Below, in pieces: positions 766 through 26,010 of a DNA stretch of 64,000 nucleotides. Both the position numbers and the translations under genes were made by a program. Every line of letters begins with the position of its first letter. Positions within the stretch are counted from its first letter, which is position 1. The notes under the pieces are model-generated. The model ran no database searches. It was not told the DNA's origin and saw only the letters and a program-made list of their open reading frames with translations. Where the stretch lies: assembly GCA_039815145.1 (NCBI GenBank), contig JBCBZW010000007.1:1192-65191 (forward strand), written 5' to 3'. The DNA is from Pseudomonadota bacterium (lineage in GTDB: Bacteria; Pseudomonadota; Gammaproteobacteria; Steroidobacterales; JBCBZW01).

Positions 766-3700
766 ATGGGAGACGATATGCGCAGGGACGCGTCACGGGG
801 AAGGTACGCCCAACTTCTGACTATCATATTCGTTAGCTTGGGCGTGGGGTCGCTGCAGGCGGCGGACGTGGACGGAGTGAAGTTTCTCGGGGATGAAACC
901 GACCGCAACGTCGGCATCTTCGTCGGCGGCGACGGCGACTTCAATGCCGACGGCGTCGACGATCTGGTCATCGCCGCCTGGAAGACGTCGAGCGACTCAG
1001 ACGGTCGCGTCTACGTGATCTACGGAGGCCAACCGGTCGATCCCGACTTCCGCCTCGGCGATCTGCTGGACGGCGACGGTACCCGGGGCATCGCGATCCA
1101 TCCCGACGATGCCCGAACGCGCGACCGCTTCGGTCGCTCCGCAGACTTCATCGGCGACATCAACGGGGATGGGGTGGATGACCTCATCGTCGGCTCCATC
1201 TACTCCGGCCGCACGGACATCGGCGACCTGCCCTACGACGCGGGCGAGGCCTACGTGATCTACGGTCGCGCCGGCGGCTTGCCGAACAACTTCAACGTCG
1301 GCGACCTGCTGGCGGAAAACGGCGGCGACGGCAGCGAGGGGTTCGTCATCCGCGGCTTTCGTCGCCAGGACGAGCTCGGCCGGTCCGTCAGCCGGGCTGG
1401 CGACCTCAACGGTGACGGGCTGCCGGATCTGGTGGTGGGCGCCCTGGTCGACACCTACATCTACGATGATCCCACCCCCGGCGACGGACCGGGTGAGGCC
1501 TACGTGATCTTCGGTCGGCCGGACAACGGCTTCCCCGCCGAGATCGAGGTCGAAACCCTGGTCAACGAGGGCGACGGCAGCGAGGGCTTCGTCGTTCGTG
1601 GGGTGAAGAACCTGGACCGCATGGGCGTGGTGGCGGAAGCCGGCGACGTCGACGGCGACGGTATCGGCGACCTCGTGCTGGGCGCCCTGTCCGGCGGGCG
1701 AGGGGTGTCCGGCGAGGTGTACGTCGTCTACGGCCGCAGCGATCCCTTCCCCGGCGTGTTGGAACTGGCCTCGCTCCTGCCCAGCAACGGCGGTAACGGC
1801 AGCGAAGGCTTCGTGGTGGTCGGTGCGACGCCCGGCGATCGCCTCGGCCTCGTCCACGGGGCTGGAGATATCAACGGCGATGGTTTCGACGACGTGCTCA
1901 TGGGCGGCTACCGAGCAGAACCCTTCGGCTTGATCGAGTCGGGGGCCGTCTACGTGATCTTCGGCACGCCCCGCGCGGTGCGTGGCCCGGCCTTCGATCT
2001 ACGCTCCCTGTTCCCCGCCAACGGCGGTGACGGCAGCCGCGGTTTCATCGTGCCGGGCAGCGATGCGGGCGATCGCCTGGCGTCCGTGAGCACGGCGGGT
2101 AACGTCAACGGCGATGACTTCGAGGACTTTATCGTCGGTTCCTTCCGTGGGGAGGAGGGCGGTGGCAACAACACCGCGGATGTCGGCGAGGCCTACCTGA
2201 TCCTCGGTCGCGCCATCTTTCCGCCCGTGTTCGTGCTCGACACCTTGCGACCGGAGTTTGCCGCCGACGGCAGCTCGGGCGCGGTGATCACGGGCGAAGA
2301 CGCAGGCGGGCGCCAGGGGCGAGCCCTCAGCACCGCAGGCGACATCGACGGTGACGGCTACGACGATGTCATCACCGGCGCCTGGCAAGCGGACGGCGAA
2401 GGCAACGGTCGCAGTTCGGACGATGCGGGCGAGGCCTACCTCACCTACGGACGACCGGGCCTGCAGCCCTCCACCCTCAAGGTGGCGGTGTACGACAACC
2501 CCTTCCCCAACCCGGTGGTCGGCGCCTGCGCGGGCCTTGCCGTGGAGCTGTTCGACGATGTGAACTTCGCCGACTCCCTCGGCACGCTGCCTGTGGCCGT
2601 CTACGAATCCCTGCCCGATGAGCAGGACAACCGCATCACGGCCATCAGCGTGCCCGCCGGGTTGCGCGTGTTGCTGTTCCGTAGTGACGACGTCTCCCTC
2701 AGTGCCGACCTCATCGTCACGGAAGACACGGTGCTCACCGGCGGCGACGACAACGCCGTCAGCGCCCTGGTGGTCGAATGCGCCGATCCGCTCGGGGTCC
2801 CTCAGCTCATCAATCCCGGGGATCAACGCAACGTGGTGGGCGATCGCATCAGCCTGACCATCGGCGTCGCCAACGCGGAACAGGGGCCCTTCACCTTCAC
2901 CGCCTCCGGCCTGCCACCGATCACGGGCATCAACCCGGTGACCGGTGCGATCGGCGGCCGCGTCTCGACCCCCGGTGTGTACCCGGTGACCGTGATGGCC
3001 ACCAACCGCTACGGCGGGGTCGGCGAGGTCTCCTTCCTCTGGGCCGTGGCCGATGCTTCGGACAACGTTCCGCCCACCTTGGTCGACCCGGGCCCACAGA
3101 CGGACTTCCTGGACGCGCCGGTGACCCTCCAGCTGCAGGGGGATGACGTGGACGGCGACGTGTTGACCTACACGGCCGCTCCCTTGCCCGAGGGGTTGCT
3201 CCTCGACCCGGCGACGGGGCTGATCACCGGGACGCCCACCCTCGAGCAATCGCTCACGGTCACCGCCACGGTCAGCGATCCGGGCGGCGCCAGCGCCTCG
3301 GTGACCTTCGCCTGGGATGTGGAGCTCGAACCCAACCTGCCGCCGACGCTCGAACAGCCGGCGGACCAGCGCACGGTGGTCGACGAGCCTGCCTCGCTGC
3401 AACTCGTGGCGAGCGACGGCAACGGCGATACGCTCACCTTCGCGGCCGAGGGGTTGCCCGAGGGGCTGAGCATCGATCCTGCGACGGGCTTGATCAGCGG
3501 CACGCCCACGAGCATCGGTGAGTTCATCGTGTCTGCCTCTGTCGCCGATACGCGCGATGGCAGTGATCAGGCGAGCTTCACGTGGCGCGTACTGGACGAT
3601 GAGGTGCTCATCGACACGGGCTTCGACGACGACGCCGATGGCTTTACCTACATCGACGATGCCTTCCGCGGCACCGACGAGCCGACCTACGCCGACGGCA

Positions 3701-4671
3701 CCTACGGCGCCGACAGTGGCTTCGACGGCGGTGGGCTCGAGGTGGTGACCGGTGGCATCGACGGCGATGACATCACGGGCATGTCGGGCGGTTGGACCCG
3801 AGGTTTCACCCTGGTGGAGCCGTCGGTGGTCTCGCTCACCTTACGCTACGAGTTGAACCACGCGGCTTCCCATGAGCCCGACGAGCTGGTCCAGGCCCTG
3901 GCCTCCATCGACGGCACCTTGCTCGGCGCTGACGGCAGCGATGTCATCGCAGAGCTGGTAGGACTCGACGGCAGTCCCGACGATGTCGACAGCACCGGCT
4001 GGCAGGTCTTCACGGCGACGGCGTCATTGCCCGCCGGCGAGCACGTGCTGACGCTGGGCATCTACCACAGCAAGAAGACCGTGGCCGACGAGATCTCGAG
4101 CGTGCGCTACGACGATGTGAGCCTGACCGTCGCGCCGGTGATCGTCGACGCCCGCTTCGACGGCGATAGCGATGGCTTCGCCTACGCCGACGATGTCTTC
4201 CGTGGCACCGACGCCCCGGCGTACGCGGACGGTGCCTACGAGAGCGACGGTGGCTTCGACGGCGGCGGCGTGGCCGTGACCACCGGCGGCATCGACGACG
4301 ACGACATCACGGGCATGTCCGGTGCCTGGTCGCGCGGCTTCAACCTCGCCGAGGCGTCGACGGTCACCCTGACCCTGCGCTACGAGCTCGTGCTGAGCGG
4401 GGAGCACGAGAGCGATGAGTTGGCGCAGGTGCTGGCTGCCGTCGACGGTGTGCTGGTGGGACGCGACGGTGGGGACGTCATCGATGAGCTCGTGGGGCCG
4501 AACGACGACGGTAGCCCGGATCTCACCACCGGCTGGCAGACCTTCAGCGTGACCCTGTCGCTCGGGGCGGGGGAGCACACGCTCTCGCTCGGCAGTTTCC
4601 ACAATGAGAAGACCTTTGCCGACGAGAGCGCCGAGGTGCGCTTCGACGATGTCCTGATCGTTCTCGATTAA
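766..4671 (+). CDS. Giant secreted integrin-like FG-GAP propeller / Ig-repeat protein (putative adhesin)
   Basis: 1301-aa ORF with a signal peptide (LLTIIFVSLGVGSLQA/AD). Seven 'GDxNGDGxDDxxxG' FG-GAP/Ca-binding repeats, each followed by 'GEAYV(I/V)(Y/F)G'. A beta/gamma-crystallin-like segment (KVAVYDNP...VLLFRSDD). Three 'LT(Y/F)xAxxLPEGLxxDPATGLIxGTP' He_PIG/cadherin-like repeats. Two tandem ~175-aa C-terminal copies. Confidence 0.85.
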   Translation: MGDDMRRDASRGRYAQLLTIIFVSLGVGSLQAADVDGVKFLGDETDRNVGIFVGGDGDFNADGVDDLVIAAWKTSSDSDGRVYVIYGGQPVDPDFRLGDLLDGDGTRGIAIHPDDARTRDRFGRSADFIGDINGDGVDDLIVGSIYSGRTDIGDLPYDAGEAYVIYGRAGGLPNNFNVGDLLAENGGDGSEGFVIRGFRRQDELGRSVSRAGDLNGDGLPDLVVGALVDTYIYDDPTPGDGPGEAYVIFGRPDNGFPAEIEVETLVNEGDGSEGFVVRGVKNLDRMGVVAEAGDVDGDGIGDLVLGALSGGRGVSGEVYVVYGRSDPFPGVLELASLLPSNGGNGSEGFVVVGATPGDRLGLVHGAGDINGDGFDDVLMGGYRAEPFGLIESGAVYVIFGTPRAVRGPAFDLRSLFPANGGDGSRGFIVPGSDAGDRLASVSTAGNVNGDDFEDFIVGSFRGEEGGGNNTADVGEAYLILGRAIFPPVFVLDTLRPEFAADGSSGAVITGEDAGGRQGRALSTAGDIDGDGYDDVITGAWQADGEGNGRSSDDAGEAYLTYGRPGLQPSTLKVAVYDNPFPNPVVGACAGLAVELFDDVNFADSLGTLPVAVYESLPDEQDNRITAISVPAGLRVLLFRSDDVSLSADLIVTEDTVLTGGDDNAVSALVVECADPLGVPQLINPGDQRNVVGDRISLTIGVANAEQGPFTFTASGLPPITGINPVTGAIGGRVSTPGVYPVTVMATNRYGGVGEVSFLWAVADASDNVPPTLVDPGPQTDFLDAPVTLQLQGDDVDGDVLTYTAAPLPEGLLLDPATGLITGTPTLEQSLTVTATVSDPGGASASVTFAWDVELEPNLPPTLEQPADQRTVVDEPASLQLVASDGNGDTLTFAAEGLPEGLSIDPATGLISGTPTSIGEFIVSASVADTRDGSDQASFTWRVLDDEVLIDTGFDDDADGFTYIDDAFRGTDEPTYADGTYGADSGFDGGGLEVVTGGIDGDDITGMSGGWTRGFTLVEPSVVSLTLRYELNHAASHEPDELVQALASIDGTLLGADGSDVIAELVGLDGSPDDVDSTGWQVFTATASLPAGEHVLTLGIYHSKKTVADEISSVRYDDVSLTVAPVIVDARFDGDSDGFAYADDVFRGTDAPAYADGAYESDGGFDGGGVAVTTGGIDDDDITGMSGAWSRGFNLAEASTVTLTLRYELVLSGEHESDELAQVLAAVDGVLVGRDGGDVIDELVGPNDDGSPDLTTGWQTFSVTLSLGAGEHTLSLGSFHNEKTFADESAEVRFDDVLIVLD

Positions 4672-4680
4672 GCGCCGACC

Positions 4681-5730
4681 TCAGCAGCCGCGCGCGTAGA
4701 ACCAGGTGTTCGGGGCGCCGTTGGGTGCCCAGGCGGGTATCCAGCCCGCGTGCCGGGTGTCGGGCGCGCCACCCTCGCATGGGCTGGCGTCGAGAATGTC
4801 GACGTGCAACCAGGTACTGCCGGCGAGGTCAGCAACTTCCTTGACCACCACGGGGCGCTCGCGGCGCCGGTCCAGGCGGAGCACCCGGCCGGCGCCCGGT
4901 CCGTCCGGCCACAGGAGTGCGTCCCAGTCGCCGGTCAGGTAGGTGAGTCGATCGGGTAGCAACTTACGCAGGGGCCAGTAGGTGCCCGCGGCGTCCGAAG
5001 GCAGCCAGGCGACCGCTTCCGGCACGGTGTCGTCGATGCGGATCGCATACCACCCCTGTGCCGTGTCCATCACGATCGCTGCTGCGAATTCATAGGTGGC
5101 TTCGCGGCTGGGTATCTCGTCCATCGAGCGCACGATCTTCACCACCGCGGCATCGCTCGCGGGCGCACTGCGCAGGGTGACGTGACCGCCGTGGGCCAGG
5201 GGTTCGAGATCCAGGAGTCCGCGCAAACGCAGGCGTTGCAAGCCGGCGTTGACTTCGCGTAGTGCCTCCGTCGCCTGCAGCGTGGCCAGCTGGGCCGCGA
5301 CCTGCGCGCCGGGCACCTCGTCGAAGCCCACGAGGCCGTTCTCCACGGAGGGATCGTGTAGGCGGCTGCCCTCGCAGGTGCTGACGAAGGCGCGGGTGGG
5401 CGTTTGCGGGTCGACGGTGGCGAAGATCAGGTACTGGCGACCGAGCAGGGCGGGGATGCCGCAGCCTGCACTACTCGCCGCGGTCACGAAGGCGATGTCC
5501 GTAGGGTCACCTTTGTAGGGGGCGACGCTGGGGTCGAGCGTTAGGGTGACCTGTCCCTCGTCGGGACTGCCGCCGAGCTCGGTGACGGTCGCGATCATCA
5601 CGATGTCGGCGGCGGCGAAGTACTCGCTCATCGGGCGCGGCGCGCAGCGGCAGGCGAGCGCCTGCGTCGCGATCATCATGAGGAGCGCTGCGACCGGCAA
5701 TCGAAGCGATGTGCTTTGCAAAGTAACCAT
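4681..5730 (-). CDS. Secreted TIMP/netrin-like 'CxC' N-terminal domain protein with SH3b-like C-terminal region
   Basis: ORF 4681..5739 (TTG). ATG at 5730 is preceded by GAGGG. The signal peptide ends 'TQALA' and is followed directly by 'CRCAPRPMSEYFAAADIVMIATVTEL', the pattern of bacterial TIMP-like proteins (mature N-terminal Cys-x-Cys). C-terminal 'GWYAIRIDD...VAWLP' looks SH3b-like. Confidence 0.7.
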   Translation of the reverse strand: MVTLQSTSLRLPVAALLMMIATQALACRCAPRPMSEYFAAADIVMIATVTELGGSPDEGQVTLTLDPSVAPYKGDPTDIAFVTAASSAGCGIPALLGRQYLIFATVDPQTPTRAFVSTCEGSRLHDPSVENGLVGFDEVPGAQVAAQLATLQATEALREVNAGLQRLRLRGLLDLEPLAHGGHVTLRSAPASDAAVVKIVRSMDEIPSREATYEFAAAIVMDTAQGWYAIRIDDTVPEAVAWLPSDAAGTYWPLRKLLPDRLTYLTGDWDALLWPDGPGAGRVLRLDRRRERPVVVKEVADLAGSTWLHVDILDASPCEGGAPDTRHAGWIPAWAPNGAPNTWFYARGC

Positions 5731-5742
5731 TGCCGTCAACCC

Positions 5743-6084
5743 TCAGCCGCCGAAGTCGCGCGCACGGCCGGTGCGACGCAGGGCCGCGACGGTCGTGCCG
5801 TCACAGTCCTCCAGGTTGGGTGCCTGCACGGAGCCGTCGCGGGCGACGGTGACGAGCACGGGGTTGGAGGTGAGCGACTTATACAAGGTGGCACCGTCTT
5901 GGATCCGCGCGCTGACGTAGAACACCAGTTGGTCCCAGGGCAGCACCTGCGTTGGGTCGTCGACCGAGCACACGATGACGTCGGGCGCGTCACCGAGCAT
6001 GCCCGCACGCGTCGGCGTGCTCAGGCTGAGCAGACTCGCCGCGATGGCGATGGTGATGGCGAGTGTCAATGGCCTGAAGCGCAT
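5743..6084 (-). CDS. Small secreted hypothetical protein
   Basis: ORF 5743..6099 (TTG). ATG at 6084 with AAGGAC 6 nt upstream. Signal peptide MRFRPLTLAITIAIAASLLSLSTPTRA. The stop TGA lies inside the SD region of the downstream TIMP-like gene, so this is a 2-gene operon. Confidence 0.55.
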   Translation of the reverse strand: MRFRPLTLAITIAIAASLLSLSTPTRAGMLGDAPDVIVCSVDDPTQVLPWDQLVFYVSARIQDGATLYKSLTSNPVLVTVARDGSVQAPNLEDCDGTTVAALRRTGRARDFGG

Positions 6085-6213
6085 GGCGATGTCCTTCAAC
6101 GTGGGAGTCCTTACAGGATAGGTCAGTTGCGCACTGGCGTGGTTCCCCAGCCGTCACGCCCCGGAGGGACTCGTGCGACAATCGGGCGCAGGGGATTACT
6201 AGTGGGGGACGCC

Positions 6214-8040
6214 ATGGGCAAGCAGATTACACGCCGGGATTTCTTGAACGGTACGCAGGTGGCCCTGGGCGCGAGCTTGCTGACGCCGTGGAGTGAGGTC
6301 TTCGGCGCGACTGGCCCGGGAGCTGCGTACCCGCCCGCGCGAACGGGCCTGCGCGGCACCCACGATGGCGCTTGGGAGACCATGCATGCGCGCGTGGCCG
6401 GCAAGCGTTGGCCGAGCGAGAAGCCCTCTGAGGCCTACGATCTGGTGATCGTCGGCGCCGGCATCAGCGGCCTGTCCGCTGCCTACTTCTACCGCCAGGC
6501 GCACCCGAAGGCACGCATTCTGATCCTCGACAATCACGACGACTTCGGTGGCCATGCGAAGCGCAACGAGTTTCGCATCCAGGGGCGCACGCGCATCGGC
6601 TATGGCGGCACGGAGGCGATCGACACACCATCGTCCTACTCGGCGATCGCCCGCCAGCTGCTGAAGGACATCGGCATCGACTTGCAGCGCTTCTACCAGT
6701 ACTTTCATCAGGACCTTTACGAGTCGATGGGGCTGGGTCACTCCATCATGTTCGACGCCGCCACCTACGGCGAGCGCAAGCTCGTCACCGGCTACGGGTC
6801 GCGGCCGTGGGAGGCCTTCGCCGCGGACACGCCGATGAATCCGCGCGCCCGAGCCGACCTGGTCCGCATCTTCACCGAAGAATGCGACTACCTGCCGGGA
6901 CTCTCCTACGAGGAGAAGTACGCGCGCCTCGCCAAGATCAGCTACCTGGATTTCCTGCGCGACCACGCCAAGGTGGACGAGCAGGTGCTGGGCATCTATC
7001 GCCAGTGGTTCCGCAGCTTCTACGGCTTGGGATCGAAGGACGTGCCGGCGCTGCTCATCAGTGAGTACGGCGACGGTGGCGGTCTGCCGGGCCTTACGCA
7101 CACGATGCCGCGGGTGGGTCATCGCGGCGATGAGCCCTACATCTTCCATTTCCCGGATGGCAACGCGTCCGTCGCCAGGTTGTTGGTGCGCGCGCTGCTT
7201 GCCGAGGCCGTTCCCGGCGAGACCATGGAGGATGTGGTGACCGCCGTGGTCGACTACGCGTCGTTGGATCGGCCCGGATCGGACCTGCGCTTGCGCCTCG
7301 AGAGCACGGTGACCAACGCCCAGCACACGGGCGATGAGAAGGCCGTGGACGTGACCTACGTGCACCATGGGGAGGCCACTACCGTGCGCGCGGGTCAATG
7401 CATCATGGCGTGCTACAACGCCGCGATCCCCTACCTGTGCCCGGAGCTGCCGGCGGCCCAGAAGGAGGGTCTGGCCTACAACGTGAAGGTGCCCCTCACC
7501 TACACCAAGGTGCTGATCAACAACTGGACGTCGTTCGTGAAGCAGGGCATCTCCTACGTCTACTTCACCAACGACTTCTACAAGCAGATCGAGCTCGACT
7601 ACCCCGTGAGCATGGGCGACTACGCCTTCGACGAGGGACCCGAGCAACCGATGATCGTGCATCTGTGCCACGTGCCCTACTTCGATGGCATCGAAGGGCC
7701 CGAGCAGTGGCGCGCCGGTCGTCGCCAGCTGCTGTCCACGTCCTTCGCCGACTTCGAGTTCCACGTGCGCGATCAGATGGACGCCGCCCTCGGCGCGGGC
7801 GGTTTCGATGCCGAGCGCGACATCGAGGCGATCACCGTCAATCGCTGGCCCCACGGTTACGCTTACAACCCGATCTACCTGTGGGAACCCGAGTGGCAGG
7901 ACCCCGCGGCGACCCCCTGGGCGATCGGGCGTCAGCGCTTCGGCCGCATCGCCATCGCCAACTCAGATGCCGGGGCGAGCTCGGACACGAACACGGCGAT
8001 CACCGAGGCCCACCGAGCGGTGGGTGAGCTGGTGGGCTGA
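6214..8040 (+). CDS. Tat-exported FAD/NAD(P)-binding oxidoreductase (spermidine-dehydrogenase-like)
   Basis: In-frame ATG at 6214 gives 'MGKQITRRDFLNGTQVALGASLL' (twin-arginine signal). Dinucleotide-binding 'DLVIVGAGISGLSAAYFY'. The upstream part of ORF 5716..8040 is an Arg/Gly-rich shadow extension. Confidence 0.8.
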   Translation: MGKQITRRDFLNGTQVALGASLLTPWSEVFGATGPGAAYPPARTGLRGTHDGAWETMHARVAGKRWPSEKPSEAYDLVIVGAGISGLSAAYFYRQAHPKARILILDNHDDFGGHAKRNEFRIQGRTRIGYGGTEAIDTPSSYSAIARQLLKDIGIDLQRFYQYFHQDLYESMGLGHSIMFDAATYGERKLVTGYGSRPWEAFAADTPMNPRARADLVRIFTEECDYLPGLSYEEKYARLAKISYLDFLRDHAKVDEQVLGIYRQWFRSFYGLGSKDVPALLISEYGDGGGLPGLTHTMPRVGHRGDEPYIFHFPDGNASVARLLVRALLAEAVPGETMEDVVTAVVDYASLDRPGSDLRLRLESTVTNAQHTGDEKAVDVTYVHHGEATTVRAGQCIMACYNAAIPYLCPELPAAQKEGLAYNVKVPLTYTKVLINNWTSFVKQGISYVYFTNDFYKQIELDYPVSMGDYAFDEGPEQPMIVHLCHVPYFDGIEGPEQWRAGRRQLLSTSFADFEFHVRDQMDAALGAGGFDAERDIEAITVNRWPHGYAYNPIYLWEPEWQDPAATPWAIGRQRFGRIAIANSDAGASSDTNTAITEAHRAVGELVG

Positions 8041-19746: not shown

Positions 19747-20691
19747 TCAGACGGCCTCGGCCACGGCGGTCGTGGGCACACGGAGCAGGCGTTCAGCGAA
19801 GAACTCCGTATGCCCGCGTGAGCCCGCAGCAGGGCGCCACAGACTCACCTGCTGGGCGAGGTGGCGAAACGCCTGAGCGGCGCGGGAGGAGGGGTAGGCA
19901 TCGAGGACGTTGATCTGCTGCTGCACGGATTTGCGCAAGTACGGGTCGTGGGGGATGTTGCCAAAGTGGGTCACGGACACATCCAGGAAGCGCTCGCACA
20001 CCCGGGCGATCTTGGTGTAGAGCTGGTTGCCGTGTTCGGCGCCCGCGGTCATGTTGGTCAACACGCGGGCGTGATCCACCCGGTAGTCGCGGCTCAGCAC
20101 CTTGATCAGGGCGTAGGCGTCGGTGATGGACCCGGGGTCGTCGCACACGGTCACCACCACATCGCGCGCGGCTTGAGCGAAGCTGGCCACGTTTTCCGAC
20201 AAGCCCGCCGCCGTGTCGATGATGAGCACATCGACCGGACGGGTGAGCTCGCTGAAGGCGTGGATCAAGCCCGCGCTCTCGCGCGCATCGAGCAGGGCCA
20301 TGCGCTTGTTGCCCGAGGCGGCCGGCACCAGCGTCATGCCCCAGGGGCCCTCCACGAGCACATCCTCCAGGGAGCACTGGCCTTCGAGGACGTTGCTCAG
20401 GGTGTAGCGGGGGTGCAGGCCCAGGTGCACGTCGAGGTTCGCTAAGCCCAGGTCGGCGTCCAGCAGCATGACGCGCCTTCCGCTCATTGCACAGGCGACG
20501 CCGAGGTTGGCTGACACGGTGGTCTTGCCCACGCCGCCCTTGCCACTGGTGATGGCGATCACCTGCACCGGTTGGTTACTCGCCACGCGGCGCAGGCCGC
20601 TGGCCTGGTCTTCCTGCATCCAACCGCCGTCTTGCTGGGGTTGGCGAGGGGCGTGCTGGTCGTTCGGGTTGCTGTCGCTCGGGTCAGGCAC
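19747..20691 (-). CDS. fleN: MinD/ParA-type flagellar number regulator FleN/FlhG
   Basis: Deviant Walker A 'ITSGKGGVGKTTVSANL'. GTG start with GAGGTG SD, overlapping the flhF end by 8 nt. Confidence 0.92.
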   Translation of the reverse strand: MPDPSDSNPNDQHAPRQPQQDGGWMQEDQASGLRRVASNQPVQVIAITSGKGGVGKTTVSANLGVACAMSGRRVMLLDADLGLANLDVHLGLHPRYTLSNVLEGQCSLEDVLVEGPWGMTLVPAASGNKRMALLDARESAGLIHAFSELTRPVDVLIIDTAAGLSENVASFAQAARDVVVTVCDDPGSITDAYALIKVLSRDYRVDHARVLTNMTAGAEHGNQLYTKIARVCERFLDVSVTHFGNIPHDPYLRKSVQQQINVLDAYPSSRAAQAFRHLAQQVSLWRPAAGSRGHTEFFAERLLRVPTTAVAEAV

Positions 20692-22783
20692 TTTCTCGCA
20701 CCTCGTCGGTGTCGTCGATCTGATCGCGACATTCCATGTCGGCTTGGTGGAACACTTGGCTTACCAGGCTCAGGCGCTTACTTCGCGCCCAGTGCAGGTC
20801 TTCCGGCACGTTCTGACCATTGCTGGTGTAGGCCAGGGGCAGGCCGGTCTCGATCAGCGCGCCCAAGGCGGTGCCGGGTGCGCGTGCCTCGTCCATCTTG
20901 GTGAGGACGCAACCGGCGGGCTTGACGTCAGCGAAGCGCTCGATCGTGTCGAGCATCGTGCGTCGTTCCGTGTTGGCACACAGCGTAAGCAAGACTTGAA
21001 CGTTGGCACGTGACCTGGACAGCAAACTGAGCTCTTCAGCGAGACGTAGATCTCGTTGCCCCATGCCTGCCGTGTCGATCAGTACCAGCCGATGGCGCGC
21101 CAAGCGTCGCATCAACGCACTGAAAGTCTTGGGATCATCGGCCTGGAACAGGGGTACGCCGAGGATGCGAGCGAAGGTGTTGAGCTGCTCGTGGGCGCCG
21201 ACGCGGAAGGTGTCCGTGGTGATGAGGGCCAGGCGGTCACGGCCGTGCTTGAGGGCGAAGCGTGCGGCCAGCTTAGCCACACTCGTCGTTTTTCCGACGC
21301 CTGTGGGGCCAACCAGCGCCACCACACCGCCACGGTCGATCACCTCCTGGTCGAGGGTGCGCAGGCGCGCGTTCGCCTGGCCGGCGAGGGCGGGCCAGTC
21401 GACGGCCTCGTTGTTCTCGGCTGCTGCGTTGGCCAGTTCCTGCACGAGTGGATCGCTCATGCCCACGCGGTGCAGGGAGCGAAGGTACAGGCGCAGCGTC
21501 TGTTGGCGACCCGATTCCGGGGCACCTGCGCGCTGCTCGCTTCGCCCGCGGGCGCGTTCGGGACGGCGCCTGACCCCGGCCAGCACGCTCAGTAGGCCGT
21601 TGCCTTTGCCGTTCCCTGATGCGGCTGACGCTGAATCGGAGAGCTCGACCTGATCCTCACGCAGCTCATCGGGGTCCGCTTCGGCCTCGACCTCCGGAGT
21701 GGGTTCCGGGTAGTCCTCGATCTCGGCGTAGCGTTGGCGCGTGATACTCGGCCGACGGGGGCTGGGGAACGGTGCCGAGGAGGCGTCCGGCGCCGGGCGC
21801 GAGTAGGCCAGTTGTTGCGCGGTCATCGCCTCTTCGAAGGACTCGGGGGAGTCGTCGGCGAAGTCGTCCAGCTCCACCATGTCGTTACGCTCGTCGAAGC
21901 CGACGGTATCGCCGGCGCCGTGCTCGCCGGGAGCGTCCCAGTCGACCGTGTCACTGGGGGGCTCACGCTCCTCGTCGATCAGTGACAGTTCGACGGTAGC
22001 CTCCGGCCCTTCGCGCCATAGGGTCATGGCCACCGGGCGTGGCCCGAAGCCGTCGTCGAAGGCCTGCTCTACGCCGTCGCGGCCGCCGTGTCGCACGGCG
22101 GCGGTGGGCGGCGCAGTGGTCGGTGGCGGCTGCGTCGGCAGGAGAATCTCGGAGGATTCTGCCGCCGCTGCTGCCGGGCGCGGCGTGGCGCGTCGCTTCT
22201 TCTTGGCGGGTGCTTGTGCCGCAGCCTTGGTCGCCGTGCTCGGCTTGGCTGAGCCATTGGTTGAACTCTGGGCCGTGGCGCTGCGTCGCTTGGCCGTGCT
22301 CTTGCTGGCGCTTGCGGTCTTGCGCGTCGTGGTGCTCGTGCGCCGGGTACGTCGCGTGGTGCTGGTGCTGCTACTGGTGCTGGCGGTGCTCGCCTTGCGT
22401 CGTGCGGGCGGTTTTTCGGCGGCATCGTCCGCCGTCGCGGTGGCCCGCTTGGCCGTCGCGGTGGCCGGCTTCGCAGCGGCACTCGAGGACGGCGGCGAAG
22501 GCAATCGCAGGGACTTGCCATCGGAGCGTCGGGCTGGGCTCGGCGGTGCTTCCGGGCGTTCGGCGCTAGGTGCTGACGCGCCGTCGGCGGCCGCCTGGGC
22601 CTGCTCGGGGTTGGCGCCCAGGGCGTGATCGATCAGGCGCGGGTCGTAGTCCACCGCCGCGATGATCTCGATACCGCCAGGCACCTGCTGGTTGGAGAGG
22701 ATCACCGCGTCGGGACCTTGCTCGTCCCGAACCAGGCGGATGGCATGTTTCATGTCGCGGGCGACAAATCGCTTGATGTGCAT
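20684..22783 (-). CDS. flhF: Flagellar biosynthesis SRP-type GTPase FlhF, with greatly expanded low-complexity B-domain
   Basis: N-terminal 'MHIKRFVARDMKHAIRLVRDEQGPDAVILS'. C-terminal NG domain 'VALVGPTGVGKTTSVAKLA', 'IDTAGMGQRD', 'CVLTKMDEA'. About 370 aa of S/T/A/P/K/R-rich then acidic sequence lies between them. Confidence 0.9.
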   Translation of the reverse strand: MHIKRFVARDMKHAIRLVRDEQGPDAVILSNQQVPGGIEIIAAVDYDPRLIDHALGANPEQAQAAADGASAPSAERPEAPPSPARRSDGKSLRLPSPPSSSAAAKPATATAKRATATADDAAEKPPARRKASTASTSSSTSTTRRTRRTSTTTRKTASASKSTAKRRSATAQSSTNGSAKPSTATKAAAQAPAKKKRRATPRPAAAAAESSEILLPTQPPPTTAPPTAAVRHGGRDGVEQAFDDGFGPRPVAMTLWREGPEATVELSLIDEEREPPSDTVDWDAPGEHGAGDTVGFDERNDMVELDDFADDSPESFEEAMTAQQLAYSRPAPDASSAPFPSPRRPSITRQRYAEIEDYPEPTPEVEAEADPDELREDQVELSDSASAASGNGKGNGLLSVLAGVRRRPERARGRSEQRAGAPESGRQQTLRLYLRSLHRVGMSDPLVQELANAAAENNEAVDWPALAGQANARLRTLDQEVIDRGGVVALVGPTGVGKTTSVAKLAARFALKHGRDRLALITTDTFRVGAHEQLNTFARILGVPLFQADDPKTFSALMRRLARHRLVLIDTAGMGQRDLRLAEELSLLSRSRANVQVLLTLCANTERRTMLDTIERFADVKPAGCVLTKMDEARAPGTALGALIETGLPLAYTSNGQNVPEDLHWARSKRLSLVSQVFHQADMECRDQIDDTDEVRESA

Positions 22784-22792
22784 TTAGTGTTC

Positions 22793-24859
22793 TCAGGCTC
22801 CAACCGCGGCAACCATGCGCAGACGCTTGTCGTCCGGCACTTCGTTCACCGCCAGTACGTTCAGATTCGGTAGCTGGTGTCGCAACAGGCGCGATAGCCA
22901 ACTCCTGATCGTCGGGCTCACCAACACCACTGCCGGTTCGCCTGCCATCTCCTGGCGTTGGGCGGACTCGGCGAGGCTACGGTGCAGTCGCTCGGCGAGG
23001 TTCGGCTCGATGCCGCCGCCTTGTCCGCTCTGCAGGTTCTCTTGCAACATGCGTTCCAGTTTTGGCTCCAGCGTGATGACAGGCAGTTCTTCCCGCATTC
23101 CATTGATGCGTTGGACGATGGAACGCCCCATGGCGACCCGCACCATGGCCGCCAGAGCGGCGGGTTCTTGACTGCGCGGCGCGTGTTCCGCCATCGCTTC
23201 GGCGATTCTCTTGAAGTTGGTGATGGGGATGCGCTCGGCGAGTAACTCCTGCAGCGTGCGCACGAAGGCGCCCATGGACAGGGCCTTGGGCACCAGGTCC
23301 TCCACCAGCTTCGGTGAGCTTTGCGCCAGGCGGTCGAGGAGGTGTTGGGCCTCGTCGTAGCCGAAGAGCTCGTTGGCGTGCGTCGTCAAGATCTGTGTGA
23401 GGTGGGTGGCGACCACGGTGGCGGCATCGACCACGGAGTAGCCGAGGGTCTGGGCGCGTTCGCGCTCCGAGGGATCGATCCACACCGCGTCCAAGCCGAA
23501 GGCGGGCTCCTTGGTCTTTTGTCCGGGAATCGGCTTGACCGTGTCGTTCGGTGCGATGGCGAGTTCTTTGTTGGGGAAGATCTCGCCCTCACCGATCGGC
23601 ACGTCCAGGAGCTTGATCCGGTAAGCGTTGGGGTTGAGCTCGAGGTTGTCGCGGATGTGCACGGGCTGCACCAGGAAGCCCAGCTCCTGGGTGAACTTCT
23701 TGCGTACGCCCTTGATCTTGTTCATGAGCTCGCCGCCCTGGCGCTTGTCCACCATGCCGATCAGGCGGAAGCCCACCTCCAGACCCAGGGCATCGACATC
23801 GGACACATCGTCCCAGGACAGCTCCGGCGGTTTCGGCGCTTCCGTGGGAGCTTCCTGCTCGGCTGCGGCCGCTTGCTCCGCCGCGGTCGGCTGCCGATTG
23901 AGCAGCCATGCGCCGGTGCCACAGGCGGCGGCTAAACCTAAGAACACCACGTTTGGCATGCCGGGGATGAGCCCCAGCAGGCCGAGCACCCCAGCGGTGA
24001 CGCCGAGCGTGCGGGAGTTACCGAGCAGCTGCTTCACCACCTGCTCGCCCATGTCCTGGGAGCCGGACATGCGGGTGACGATGATGGCGACGGCGGTCGA
24101 GAGCAGCAACGAGGGGATCTGGGCCACCAGACCGTCGCCGATCGTGAGCAGTGTGTAGTACTCGAGCGCCTGGCCGAAGGGCATGCCGTGCTGGAGGGGG
24201 CCGATGGCGATGCCGCCGATGATGTTGATGAAGAGGATCAGGATGCCCGCGGTCGCATCGCCACGAACGAATTTGCTAGCACCGTCCATGGAGCCGTAGA
24301 AGTCTGCCTCCTGGCGAATTTCCTCGCGCCGCTGACGTGCTTCGTCCTGGGTGACCAGACCTGCGTTCAAGTCGGCGTCGATGGCCATCTGGCGACCGGG
24401 CATGGCGTCCAAGGTGAAGCGTGCGCTCACCTCCGAGATGCGCCCGGCGCCCTTGGTCACCACGATGAAGTTGATGATCACCAGGATGGCGAAGACCACC
24501 AGGCCCACGGCGAAGTTGCCGCCCACCACGAAGTCCCCGAAGGCCTCGATCACCCGGCCGGCGGCGCCCGTGCCATTGTGGCCGTTGAGCAGTACCACGC
24601 GGGTCGAGGCCACGTTGAGCGCGAGGCGCAGCAAGGTGGCGATCAACAGCACGGTCGGGAACACCCCGAGGTCCAGGGGGCGGTTGGCGTAGATCACCGC
24701 GAGGACGATCACCAGGGACAAGGTGATGTTGAAGGTGAACAGCAGATCCAGCGCCATGGGCGGCAGGGGCAGCACCATCATGCTGAGCATCAAGATCAGC
24801 AGAATCGGCACACCCGCGCCCTGGCGTAGCTGGCGGGCGACACGCTCGAGGAGTTCCAT
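22793..24859 (-). CDS. flhA: Flagellar export apparatus protein FlhA
   Basis: 688 aa, FHIPEP family. Eight TM segments followed by a cytoplasmic domain. 'GDGLVAQIPSLLLSTA' is typical. Confidence 0.95.
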   Translation of the reverse strand: MELLERVARQLRQGAGVPILLILMLSMMVLPLPPMALDLLFTFNITLSLVIVLAVIYANRPLDLGVFPTVLLIATLLRLALNVASTRVVLLNGHNGTGAAGRVIEAFGDFVVGGNFAVGLVVFAILVIINFIVVTKGAGRISEVSARFTLDAMPGRQMAIDADLNAGLVTQDEARQRREEIRQEADFYGSMDGASKFVRGDATAGILILFINIIGGIAIGPLQHGMPFGQALEYYTLLTIGDGLVAQIPSLLLSTAVAIIVTRMSGSQDMGEQVVKQLLGNSRTLGVTAGVLGLLGLIPGMPNVVFLGLAAACGTGAWLLNRQPTAAEQAAAAEQEAPTEAPKPPELSWDDVSDVDALGLEVGFRLIGMVDKRQGGELMNKIKGVRKKFTQELGFLVQPVHIRDNLELNPNAYRIKLLDVPIGEGEIFPNKELAIAPNDTVKPIPGQKTKEPAFGLDAVWIDPSERERAQTLGYSVVDAATVVATHLTQILTTHANELFGYDEAQHLLDRLAQSSPKLVEDLVPKALSMGAFVRTLQELLAERIPITNFKRIAEAMAEHAPRSQEPAALAAMVRVAMGRSIVQRINGMREELPVITLEPKLERMLQENLQSGQGGGIEPNLAERLHRSLAESAQRQEMAGEPAVVLVSPTIRSWLSRLLRHQLPNLNVLAVNEVPDDKRLRMVAAVGA

Positions 24860-26010
24860 CAGTCCTCATCCTCTCTAGGTGGGTCACCGGCGGTGACATC
24901 AGGTGGCAGCTCGATATCGGGTACGTCGGGCATGGGGATCTCGTAACGTCGCGCTCGGCGCAGGGCGTAGATGTAGGACAGCACCTGGGCGACGGCTTGG
25001 TAGAGGGCGCGCGGGATCTCCTCGCCGATGTCCGTGTGACGGTTGAGCGCCCGCGCCAGGGGTGGCGCTTCGAACAGCGGGACCCGATGTTCCTCGGCAA
25101 TCTCGCGAATGCGCGCGGCCACCATGTCCGTGCCCTTGGCAACCACCTTCGGTGCGCCCATGTCGTCTTCGTAGCGCAGGGCGACGGCGACGTGGGTCGG
25201 GTTGGTCACCACCACGTCCGCATGGGGCACCTCCTCCATCATCCGCCCGCGTGCCAGCTGCTGCTGCAACTGGCGAATTCGCGACTTCACTTCGGGGCGT
25301 CCGTCTGTCTCCTTCGCCTCATCGCGCACTTCCTTGAGGGTCATCTTCAGCTTGCGAGTGAAGTCCCAGAGCTGAAACGGCACGTCGATCGCGGCGATCA
25401 GGGCGAGGCTCGCGCTCAGCAGGAGTAGCGACAGGAGGCACAGCCGGATGGCGTTGCCAAGGGCCGTATTCACCGGTTGCATACTGAGGCCAACAATTTG
25501 GGGGGCGAGCTGATTCAGCAGCAGCACGGCGACACCGCCGACCAGCAGGAACTTCGCCATCGCTTTCATCAGCTCTACGAAGTTCTTCGGCGCGAAGAGA
25601 CGCTTGAAGCCCTTGATCGGGTCGAGCTTCTCGAGCTTGGGCTCGAGGGCCTTCAGGGTAAAGTTCCAGCCCCCTAGCATGATCGGGCCCACAAAGGCGG
25701 CGAAGGTGCAGAGCAGAAGAAACGGCGTGAGCGCCAGCAACCCTCGGATGATGTTGCCTTGAAGCGAGCGCATCAGATAGGTAGGGTCACCGAGCTGTGC
25801 CGCGCGGGGTGAGAATTGCTCGCGGAAGATGTCGAGGATGGTGTCCTGCAGGCCACCCCCAAAGAGCATCAAGCCCACCGCGCCCGCCATGGTGACGAGC
25901 ATGGTGGAGAGTTCCCGTGAGCGGGGGACGTTACCCTTCTCCCGTGCCTCGCGTAGGCGTTTCGGGGTTGGGTCTTCGGTTTTCTCCTGACCGTCTTCGT
26001 TCTCAGCCAT
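24859..26010 (-). CDS. flhB: Flagellar export switch protein FlhB
   Basis: 383 aa. 'EKTEDPTPKRLREAREKG' N-terminus and the autocleavage motif 'NPTH' (VVVTNPTHVAVAL). 1-nt overlap (TGATG) with flhA. Confidence 0.95.
   Translation of the reverse strand: MAENEDGQEKTEDPTPKRLREAREKGNVPRSRELSTMLVTMAGAVGLMLFGGGLQDTILDIFREQFSPRAAQLGDPTYLMRSLQGNIIRGLLALTPFLLLCTFAAFVGPIMLGGWNFTLKALEPKLEKLDPIKGFKRLFAPKNFVELMKAMAKFLLVGGVAVLLLNQLAPQIVGLSMQPVNTALGNAIRLCLLSLLLLSASLALIAAIDVPFQLWDFTRKLKMTLKEVRDEAKETDGRPEVKSRIRQLQQQLARGRMMEEVPHADVVVTNPTHVAVALRYEDDMGAPKVVAKGTDMVAARIREIAEEHRVPLFEAPPLARALNRHTDIGEEIPRALYQAVAQVLSYIYALRRARRYEIPMPDVPDIELPPDVTAGDPPREDED

Follow-up and report, generated by a model that had tools for sequence, protein, structure and literature searches.

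The 64-kb stretch of Pseudomonadota DNA analyzed here (64,000 nucleotides (nt) in full, referred to below as the window) encodes a 349-residue exported protein, the product of gene B, whose N-terminal domain is very probably a homologue of the N-terminal domain of tissue inhibitors of metalloproteinases (TIMPs). TIMPs are treated as animal proteins. The likeness of gene B to them is seen at the level of sequence and includes the exact inhibitory features: a predicted exposed Cys1, both ridge disulfides (if they form as expected) and the SSAxCG ridge. We propose that gene B encodes an envelope-anchored, TIMP-style metalloprotease inhibitor, and assign this reading, which draws on sequence comparison and a structural model, a probability of about 45%. 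The predicted protein opens with a signal peptide, MVTLQSTSLRLPVAALLMMIATQALA, followed by CRCAPRPMSEYFAAADIVMIATVTEL; it contains GWYAIRIDDTVPEAVAWLP internally and ends in ...WFYARGC. Its gene lies downstream of a second small gene, gene A, and convergent with a large surface protein gene.

A TIMP-like domain at the N-terminus

Close homologues of gene B fall into 13 clusters. We built one profile of the N-terminal domain (N-domain) from 37 diverse relatives and another of the full-length protein from 13 relatives, and compared both with the sequences of the PDB (177,635 in the case of the N-domain profile). All 15 matches of the N-domain profile were to TIMP-1, -2 or -3 (TIMP-2, E = 4.4e-9, 39.8 bits). 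Positions 1–94 of the profile align to TIMP residues 1–102, beginning at the first mature residue, with Cys1, Cys3, Cys72 and Cys101 in register. The full-length profile likewise retrieved TIMPs only (TIMP-2, E = 1.8e-5). When the gene B sequence was searched singly, TIMP-2 came out on top at a nonsignificant score (E = 0.54), with Cys27 aligned to TIMP Cys1.

Comparisons with Pfam families point in the same direction for the relatives of gene B. At E ≤ 0.1, the N-domains of 16 of the 37 matched the TIMP family (PF00965; best E = 7.8e-6); two relatives scored singly reached 19.0 and 17.8 bits, under the gathering threshold of 23.1 bits. The NTR family (PF01759) was matched weakly by two of the 37 (best E = 0.0093). 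The six-cysteine pattern of NTR finds no match in the N-domain, which holds four cysteines only. Searches of Pfam and NCBIfam with the two window proteins, A and B, gave nothing useful.

The predicted structure also resembles TIMPs. AlphaFold modeled the gene B protein with a mean local confidence (pLDDT) of 88.3 and a predicted template modeling score (pTM) of 0.80. When the model was compared with the PDB by Foldseek, TIMP-1 and TIMP-2 made up the top 8 matches and 14 of the top 15, the remaining one being the NTR domain of PCOLCE. The TIMP matches had E-values of 6e-5 to 3.5e-3, a probability of 1.00 and root-mean-square deviations of 2.6–4.1 Å over ∼100–110 columns. After the TIMPs came agrin NtA, C5 C345C and the NTR domain of meteorin. 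The original prediction, made from the sequence alone, had taken the N-terminal C-x-C and OB-fold pattern as a mark of kinship with TIMPs and had looked to structure prediction for a TIMP/NTR fold. Both expectations hold up, the first through the profile, Foldseek and subthreshold Pfam matches together.

The four cysteines of the N-domain (Cys1, Cys3, Cys64 and Cys93 in mature numbering) are invariant across the 37 diverse relatives. The ridge reads VTAASSAGCGI in gene B and YTAPSSAVCGV in TIMP-2, and SSAxCG is conserved in the family. By this correspondence, Cys1 would pair with the cysteine of SSAxCG and Cys3 with that of CxGSR, so that two of the three N-TIMP disulfides would be kept.

These same cysteines bear on a different idea, in which the N-terminal Cys-x-Cys would bind metal or act in redox chemistry, making the protein a periplasmic metal chaperone or thiol–disulfide protein. 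Such a role has in its favor an exposed N-terminal C-x-C that is invariant in the family and, at a distance of 12 kb in the window, a thioredoxin-like gene. But both cysteines have invariant distal partners at the positions of TIMP Cys1–Cys70/72 and Cys3–Cys99/101, the domain is confidently modeled as a TIMP fold, and no metal-handling or redox genes recur beside the family. We regard a metal or redox role as improbable.

Predicted exposure of the N-terminal cysteine

We surveyed the N-termini of 60 family members in which this region is intact, applying sequence rules rather than SignalP. The first mature residues are C-R-C in 55 relatives, C-K-C in two, C-L-C in two and C-S-C in one; residue 2 is thus basic in 57 of the 60. 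Small residues occupy positions –3 and –1 immediately ahead of Cys1 in 56 cases, and a hydrophobic core lies upstream in 58. Ala is found at position –3 in 49 of the 60, and one of D, E, Q, W and H at position –2 in 30; signal peptidase I sites typically look like this, and lipoboxes do not. No relative fits the strict lipobox, [LVI][ASTVI][GAS]C. Because the small-x-small site lies directly before Cys1 and a strict lipobox is absent, the mature gene B protein is predicted to begin with Cys-Arg-Cys, after Ala26. This agrees with the original prediction, which had placed cleavage directly before the cysteine, between A-L-A and C. Taken with the invariant cysteines and the TIMP-only matches of the N-domain profile, the recurrence of C-x-C behind a small-x-small site shows that the pattern did not arise by chance.

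The survey also speaks to whether gene B might encode a lipoprotein, with Cys27 lipid-modified and no free N-terminus. A permissive PROSITE-style lipobox fits 16 of the 60 relatives, and in four relatives (P0029, P0030, P0031 and P0037) a lipoprotein-like leader and a linker precede the TIMP-like head. The Q-A-L-A-C of gene B, however, fails even the permissive pattern. The absence of the strict lipobox throughout, together with Ala instead of Leu at –3 and the residues found at –2, likewise argues against lipidation, and a lipidated Cys1 would be unable to form the conserved disulfide with Cys90. A lipoprotein is therefore highly improbable.

Five of the 60 relatives depart from the common pattern, and they count against an inhibitory role for the family. 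In P0012 and the four proteins just named, C-x-C is preceded by additional residues or by a leader of the lipoprotein type; P0012 is probably cleaved ∼15 residues earlier. In all five, Cys1 would not be exposed and the TIMP-type N-terminus would be blocked, unless the protein is processed further, in the manner of Tim of Listeria, which its protease cleaves (PMC8235301).

The linker helix and the C-terminal module

The N-domain is followed by a linker helix, around which F136, V139, P140, V144 and L148 are conserved, and then by a C-terminal module. Residues 166–349 were modeled as two SH3-like barrels with a pLDDT of 92.2. Fold searches of two libraries with this module gave no significant match. 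The best were SH3b repeats of cell-wall hydrolases (E = 0.005–0.06, the closest at 0.005–0.016), among them YrvJ, staphylococcal autolysin repeats, an NlpC/P60 SH3b domain and binding domains of phage endolysins; tandem Tudor domains were also among these nonsignificant matches. In Pfam, SH3_3 (PF08239) scored 19 bits against P0101 and 24.8 bits against the protein of locus L033, both under the cut-off of 27, and did not match the gene B protein. The earlier description of the C-terminal half as SH3b-like thus has weak support, from the modeled SH3-like barrels and a slight likeness in fold to SH3b, with every match nonsignificant or below threshold. The module is marked in the family by invariant Trp residues, ...W-F-Y-S-R-G-C as last residues and a conserved Cys pair; a Cys318–Cys349 disulfide probably staples it.

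An exhaustive profile search returned 5,490 proteins at E ≤ 0.001, and the full architecture was present in ∼55 clusters at 50% identity. Among the 150 matches listed, most others are proteins of ∼150–400 residues matched via the C-terminal module alone. Those that we read consist of a signal peptide and the module, without the TIMP-like head. The module is thus much more widespread than the complete protein. Clustering the neighbors of 39 such module-only loci revealed no recurrent neighbor.

A membrane protein recurs beside the family

In 17 of 28 family loci, a gene for a ∼155-residue protein with four predicted membrane helices lies directly upstream of the TIMP-SH3 gene, often overlapping it (L003:7549-8004, L013:9540-10013, L026:9534-10010 and 14 other loci). 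The association is also seen in reverse: of 30 metagenome loci found via the four-helix protein and having enough downstream sequence, 22 carry a TIMP-SH3 gene immediately downstream. The four-helix protein has invariant motifs, QY..R.N and EFWPxFLP....GFPHGLE, in two loops that the positive-inside rule places in the periplasm. It matches no Pfam family. A search with a hidden Markov model found no homologue of it in the 64-kb window or in the loci of gene B's closest relatives, where the upstream gene encodes a cyclophilin or a glyoxalase-like protein, or is missing altogether. We considered whether the four-helix protein might be a hidden protease, given that a His-Gly is invariant in it and a Glu nearly so. 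We rejected this, as it has no known metalloprotease motif and no Pfam match. Its tie to the TIMP-SH3 gene is a new pairing, for now a candidate one based on gene order.

This pairing lends itself to a different account of the TIMP-like head, in which it is a non-inhibitory binding domain of the TIMP/NTR type and the protein a periplasmic subunit of a complex with the four-helix protein, acting as a sensor, scaffold or cell-wall tether; in the clade of the window, the partner would be encoded elsewhere or have been lost. The recurrence of the two genes in both directions of search and the placement of the conserved motifs in periplasmic loops favor such a complex, as do the lack of any recurrent protease neighbor, the five of 60 relatives without an exposed Cys1, and the return of non-inhibitory NTR domains by the fold search. 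On the other side, the sequence likeness is specific to TIMPs (15 of 15 PDB matches; Pfam TIMP in 16 relatives versus NTR in two). A signal-peptide cut placed right at Cys1 (56 of 60 relatives) and a conserved ridge are what inhibition needs and not obviously what a binding module needs, and the clade of the window works without an adjacent membrane partner. We judge a purely binding head, the chief alternative to inhibition, to be possible, if unlikely. Inhibition and binding to the four-helix protein could also both be true.

Points against an inhibitor, and protease genes near the family

Several further observations weigh against inhibition by gene B. Some concern the domain itself. Neither the gene B protein nor its isolated N-domain matched the Pfam TIMP family even at E ≤ 10, and the protein did not match the Pfam NTR family; hmmscan on gene B itself, one of the checks proposed at the outset, thus came out negative. 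There are no cysteines at positions equivalent to the third N-TIMP disulfide (Cys13–Cys124). The C-terminal subdomain of TIMPs, with its three additional disulfides, is missing, and residues 141–349 instead form the helix and tandem SH3-like barrels. Domains of the NTR fold, moreover, often serve for binding and not for inhibition.

Other points concern genomic context. The sole recurrent neighbor of the family is the small membrane protein, which has no protease signature. The 64-kb window contains no metalloprotease gene and no real gene bearing HExxH; the neighbors encode HemN, PhyH, a molybdopterin oxidoreductase, a methyltransferase, a thioredoxin-like protein and flagellar export proteins. 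Gene B has moreover been lost from a sister genome, described below, and because of this loss it must be dispensable there. Metzincin genes do occur near relatives, sporadically, in about three lineages among ∼45 loci. One metzincin match likewise appeared in a control set of similar size, and enrichment near the family is consequently not established.

In one of these lineages, a secreted 949-residue protein is encoded convergently with the TIMP-like gene, 34 nt away (L013:11108-13957, L015:4585-7437 and L016:5125-7977; the three loci are 93–94% identical and were counted as one). Its N-terminal domain resembles matrix metalloproteases (MMPs), with AFQAWGDV, FGPGSGILGFAG, HEFGHYSNLAHS and a TMYP Met-turn, and it also has NIDO domains; against Pfam Peptidase_M10 it scored E = 0.0013, under threshold. 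In a second lineage, a reprolysin-like metzincin (HEFGHNIGQKH ... SVMNY; Pfam Reprolysin_5, E∼1e-3) is encoded 1.1 kb upstream on the same strand (L109:41-1825 and L111:2-1822). Here the order is metzincin, short-chain dehydrogenase, four-helix protein and TIMP-SH3 protein, the last of these apparently truncated in L111 to its C-terminal part. In L026, a leishmanolysin-like protein is encoded 5.4 kb away. These neighbors are suggestive of a protease link. As proof of function we rejected them, since they come from three lineages only, the MMP-like loci are 93–94% identical and the control set has a match too.

The metzincin of the control set is a bona fide matrixin (L033:8365-9486; Peptidase_M10, E = 1.3e-10, above threshold). 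The next gene downstream, on the same strand, encodes a protein with the C-terminal module only and no TIMP-like head (L033:9719-10501). The C-terminal module itself might be linked to metzincins.

A possible mode of action

Exported architecture, homology, fold and the conservation of the N-terminus and cysteines are supported directly by the data above, and from these we infer cleavage, disulfides, inhibition, target class and anchoring. In the mechanism that we envisage, the gene B protein would be exported by the Sec pathway to the periplasm or cell surface. Signal peptidase I would cut after A-L-A, leaving a mature chain that begins Cys-Arg-Cys. TIMPs inhibit by placing an N-terminal wedge in the active-site cleft, where the amino and carbonyl groups of Cys1 chelate zinc (PMC9890683). 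By homology, the disulfide-locked wedge formed by Cys1 and the ridge of gene B would enter the cleft of a metzincin-type zinc endopeptidase, and the free α-amino group and carbonyl of Cys1 would chelate the catalytic zinc. Residue 2 of TIMPs points into the S1' pocket in complexes, and animal TIMPs have Thr or Ser there. In the gene B family the near-invariant Arg2 may fill this pocket; because residue 2 is near-invariantly Arg or Lys, a target accepting a basic P1' residue is predicted. The 25-residue helix would join the head to the SH3-like module, which may tether the inhibitor to the envelope, to peptidoglycan or to a membrane partner. So tethered, the inhibitor could protect the cell's own surface or time a secreted protease.

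Distribution and other bacterial TIMP-like proteins

Full-length members of the family were found in metagenome-assembled genomes (MAGs) and metagenomes only. They come from Gammaproteobacteria (Woeseiaceae, Wenzhouxiangellaceae, Oceanococcaceae and Pseudomonadales), Gemmatimonadota/Longimicrobiales and Acidobacteriota. A tblastn search with gene B gave no match in 72,556 plasmids.

A word-indexed search with the N-domain profile brought up three further proteins (P0158, P0159 and P0160), a result that shows the existence of other bacterial TIMP-like proteins and not their number. All three are metagenome proteins of 179–200 residues in which CSC or CKC comes after the signal peptide. Their C-termini differ: P0160 has an LPATG sortase signal there, and the other two have hydrophobic, basic tails that would serve as membrane helices. 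P0159 exceeds the Pfam TIMP threshold, at 30.9 bits. TIMP-like heads on such varied surface anchors fit the idea of a surface-tethered inhibitor, and by their sequences bacterial TIMP-like heads form a wider uncharacterized group than the gene B family.

Bacterial TIMP-like proteins had been called little characterized in the original prediction, and the literature search agrees, yielding a single case, Tim of Listeria. The authors of that study found no earlier record of bacterial TIMP-like proteins (PMC8235301). The fold and the mechanism are themselves already known. What is new is a bacterial sequence-level homologue of TIMP that combines this architecture with Arg2 at its tip and a membrane protein as candidate partner, a combination undescribed in the searchable literature.

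One may go further and suppose that zinc chelation by a free Cys1 is a native bacterial mechanism. The proteins studied here would then be an envelope-tethered N-TIMP family with a Cys-Arg-Cys tip that controls MMP-like or reprolysin-like metzincins with an unusual basic-P1' specificity. Sediment bacteria of at least three phyla would share this family, in most cases in an operon with the four-helix protein. This wider scheme is speculative and, taken as a whole, doubtful. If it is true, animal TIMPs would owe their inhibitory domain either to invention by bacteria or to an ancient exchange, and a new system of inhibitor and membrane protein would be added to the bacterial envelope.

Comparison with known inhibitors and modules

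Gene B is most readily compared with animal TIMP-1 to TIMP-4 (MEROPS I35; PF00965). Both have a mature Cys-x-Cys right after the signal peptide, the OB/NTR fold and homologous cysteines for Cys1–Cys70/72 and Cys3–Cys99/101. They also share the ridge T-x-x-S-S-A-x-C-G (TAPSSAVCG in TIMP-2), followed by a Y-L-I-hydrophobic strand. Identity between TIMP-2 and gene B is ∼25% over 105 columns. Unlike TIMPs, gene B is bacterial, its family has a near-invariant Arg2 in place of Thr or Ser, and the third disulfide of the N-domain is missing. A helix and tandem SH3-like module replace the TIMP C-terminal domain, the score lies below the Pfam threshold, and inhibition is a prediction from homology.

NTR modules (PF01759: netrins, PCOLCE, sFRPs and the C345C domains of complement C3/C4/C5; also agrin NtA and meteorin) have the same fold as the gene B head. 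They differ from it in being internal or C-terminal domains without a free Cys1, mostly with binding roles, whereas the sequence signal of gene B is that of TIMP.

In Listeria monocytogenes, the metzincin Mtz and the TIMP-like lipoprotein Tim are genetically linked and act on the cell envelope (PMC8235301). The TIMP likeness of Tim lies in its predicted structure, 'not in sequence', and the lipoprotein, always paired with its protease, is cleaved by it (PMC8235301). Reminiscent of Tim, some relatives of gene B have lipoprotein leaders and a few have metzincin neighbors. Gene B differs in its sequence-level homology to TIMP, its signal peptidase I site at Cys1 and the lack of an adjacent protease.

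The serralysin inhibitors (Pseudomonas AprI and Erwinia Inh, MEROPS I38) and potempin A of Tannerella provide periplasmic or outer-membrane self-protection against secreted metzincins. AprI and Inh insert their N-terminus into the active site of the protease. Unlike gene B, these inhibitors and potempin A are encoded next to their protease, and their folds or sequences are unrelated to it. Potempin A resembles the gene B head in having an OB-like barrel and differs in acting by a bilobal mechanism, not N-terminal zinc chelation (PMC9890683). The C-terminal module of gene B, modeled as SH3-like barrels, comes closest in fold to the SH3b repeats of peptidoglycan hydrolases (SH3_3, PF08239), to which its matches are nonsignificant.

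If gene B does inhibit a metalloprotease, the evolution of TIMPs could be studied on a bacterial model, and inhibitor engineering would gain a scaffold in which the S1' residue is another one (Arg). There would also be a lead on envelope self-protection in sediment bacteria that secrete many peptidases.

Gene A is not a conserved partner of gene B

The original prediction had seen genes A and B as a two-gene module, perhaps a secreted protease-inhibitor unit or a partner of the convergent adhesin. At the window locus, the gap between the stop of gene A and the start of gene B is 12 nt, because of which co-transcription is likely. The TGA of gene A sits within GGCTGAGGG, ∼10 nt ahead of the ATG of gene B, so that it does lie inside the Shine–Dalgarno-like sequence of gene B, as had been noted.

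The signal peptide of gene A ends in ...STPTRA, ahead of GMLGD. Its family comprises 45 homologue clusters at 55–77% identity, with mature proteins of ∼85 residues, two invariant cysteines and the signature PDVLVCSVDDP..V.PWDQLVFYVSAR...LYKSLTSNPVLVTV...NL.DCDG; no Pfam family matches it. We found no homologue of gene A in the seven B-family loci searched, and no A-like neighbor in all-against-all clustering of 28 loci. Elsewhere, gene A occurs in varied contexts (a Ser/Thr kinase with an NMT1-type protein; DJ-1/PfpI; γ-glutamyl transpeptidase), and an intact gene B is absent from four of four independent contexts.

A sister MAG (L076; GCA_039193195.1) is particularly instructive. Its syntenic locus has PhyH, TauD, the flavoprotein oxidoreductase, gene A (77% identical), a 417-bp gap and the FG-GAP adhesin. 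Within the gap, at L076:5579-5714, lies a frameshifted remnant of ∼150 nt from the 3' end of gene B (the last ∼45 codons), detected by tblastn as residues 305–329 and 331–349 and by DNA alignment. Since the sister locus keeps gene A, a stump of gene B and the adhesin, the order A–B–adhesin is ancestral to the two genomes, with gene B having decayed in one of them while gene A and the adhesin were kept.

These data also decide the fate of the proposed pair. The short gap, the ancestral order and an FG-GAP/invasin gene 4.6 kb away in one distant relative (L006) are what could be cited for a conserved A+B inhibitor module or for gene B as a functional partner of the adhesin. Yet no gene A homologue turned up in the searched B loci, the gene A family lives in unrelated contexts without gene B, the sister genome discarded gene B while keeping both neighbors, and no adhesin recurs in the 28-locus clustering. 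At the level of co-occurrence in other genomes, which the original prediction itself had named as a test, the module is already refuted, and either form of the idea is very improbable. Judged from these sequences, gene A is an unrelated neighbor of gene B.

Locus layout and gene models

Features of the locus are listed in Table 1. On re-reading, the sequence features first reported for the two genes all proved correct: a signal peptide followed by C-x-C, the ...ARGC end and a 113-residue secreted protein encoded upstream. Gene B starts with the ATG at 5730. An alternative TTG at 5739, three codons upstream, is a poorer start by its position, too near the ribosome-binding site. A public entry identical to the gene B protein (P0001, 332 residues, 'hypothetical protein', from a Pseudomonadota MAG) is annotated to start at Met18, which deprives it of a functional signal peptide; the family alignment favors the ATG at 5730. 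A scan of positions 4500–6400 found no promoter-like or terminator-like site.

Table 1. Coordinates of genes and protein features at the gene B locus (positions in the window)
Feature	Positions	Strand	Basis
Gene B, 349-residue exported protein (TIMP-like N-domain, linker helix, tandem SH3-like module)	4681..5730	-	Open reading frame and translation
Gene B signal peptide, residues 1–26 (MVTLQSTSLRLPVAALLMMIATQALA), predicted signal peptidase I cut after A-L-A	5653..5730	-	Read from sequence
N-TIMP-like OB-fold domain, residues 27–135	5326..5652	-	Profile-to-PDB, Foldseek and cysteine conservation
Cys27-Arg28-Cys29	codons 5652-5644	-	Sequence
SSAGCG ridge with Cys90	Cys codon 5463-5461	-	Sequence
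Cys119	codon 5376-5374	-	Sequence
Linker α-helix, residues 141–165 (25 residues), preceded by F-x-D-V-P motif	5236..5310	-	DSSP on model
Tandem SH3-like β-barrel module, residues 166–349, end ...ARGC	4684..5235	-	Domain model
Cys318 and terminal Cys349	codons 4779-4777 and 4686-4684	-	Both invariant in family alignment
Gene B stop codon	4683-4681	-	Translation
Gene A, 113-residue small exported protein, separate conserved family	5743..6084	-	Open reading frame and translation
A/B junction, gene A TGA (5745-5743) embedded in GAGGG Shine–Dalgarno-like sequence	5731..5748	-	Read from sequence
Convergent surface protein gene, 1301 residues, FG-GAP, He_PIG and PKD domains	766..4671	+	Domain search

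The A–B pair is indeed convergent with the giant adhesin gene, as originally described. The stop codons of gene B and the 1301-residue FG-GAP protein are 9 nt apart, too close for transcripts that neither overlap nor share a terminator region. The C-terminal end of the FG-GAP protein consists of two tandem copies of a ∼190-residue domain (FDDDADGFTYIDDAFRGTDEPTYADG... and FDGDSDGFAYADDVFRGTDAPAYADG...).

On the other side of the pair, a 608-residue FAD/NAD-binding oxidoreductase is encoded divergently from gene A, at 6214-8040 (+). Its leader, MGKQITRRDFLNG, is of the twin-arginine type, and in the sister genome the gene is syntenic with those for PhyH and TauD. Farther away, at 19747-26010 (-), is a flagellar export cluster unrelated to gene B, encoding a MinD/ParA-like ATPase, an SRP54-type GTPase (FlhF-like), FlhA (FHIPEP) and FlhB.

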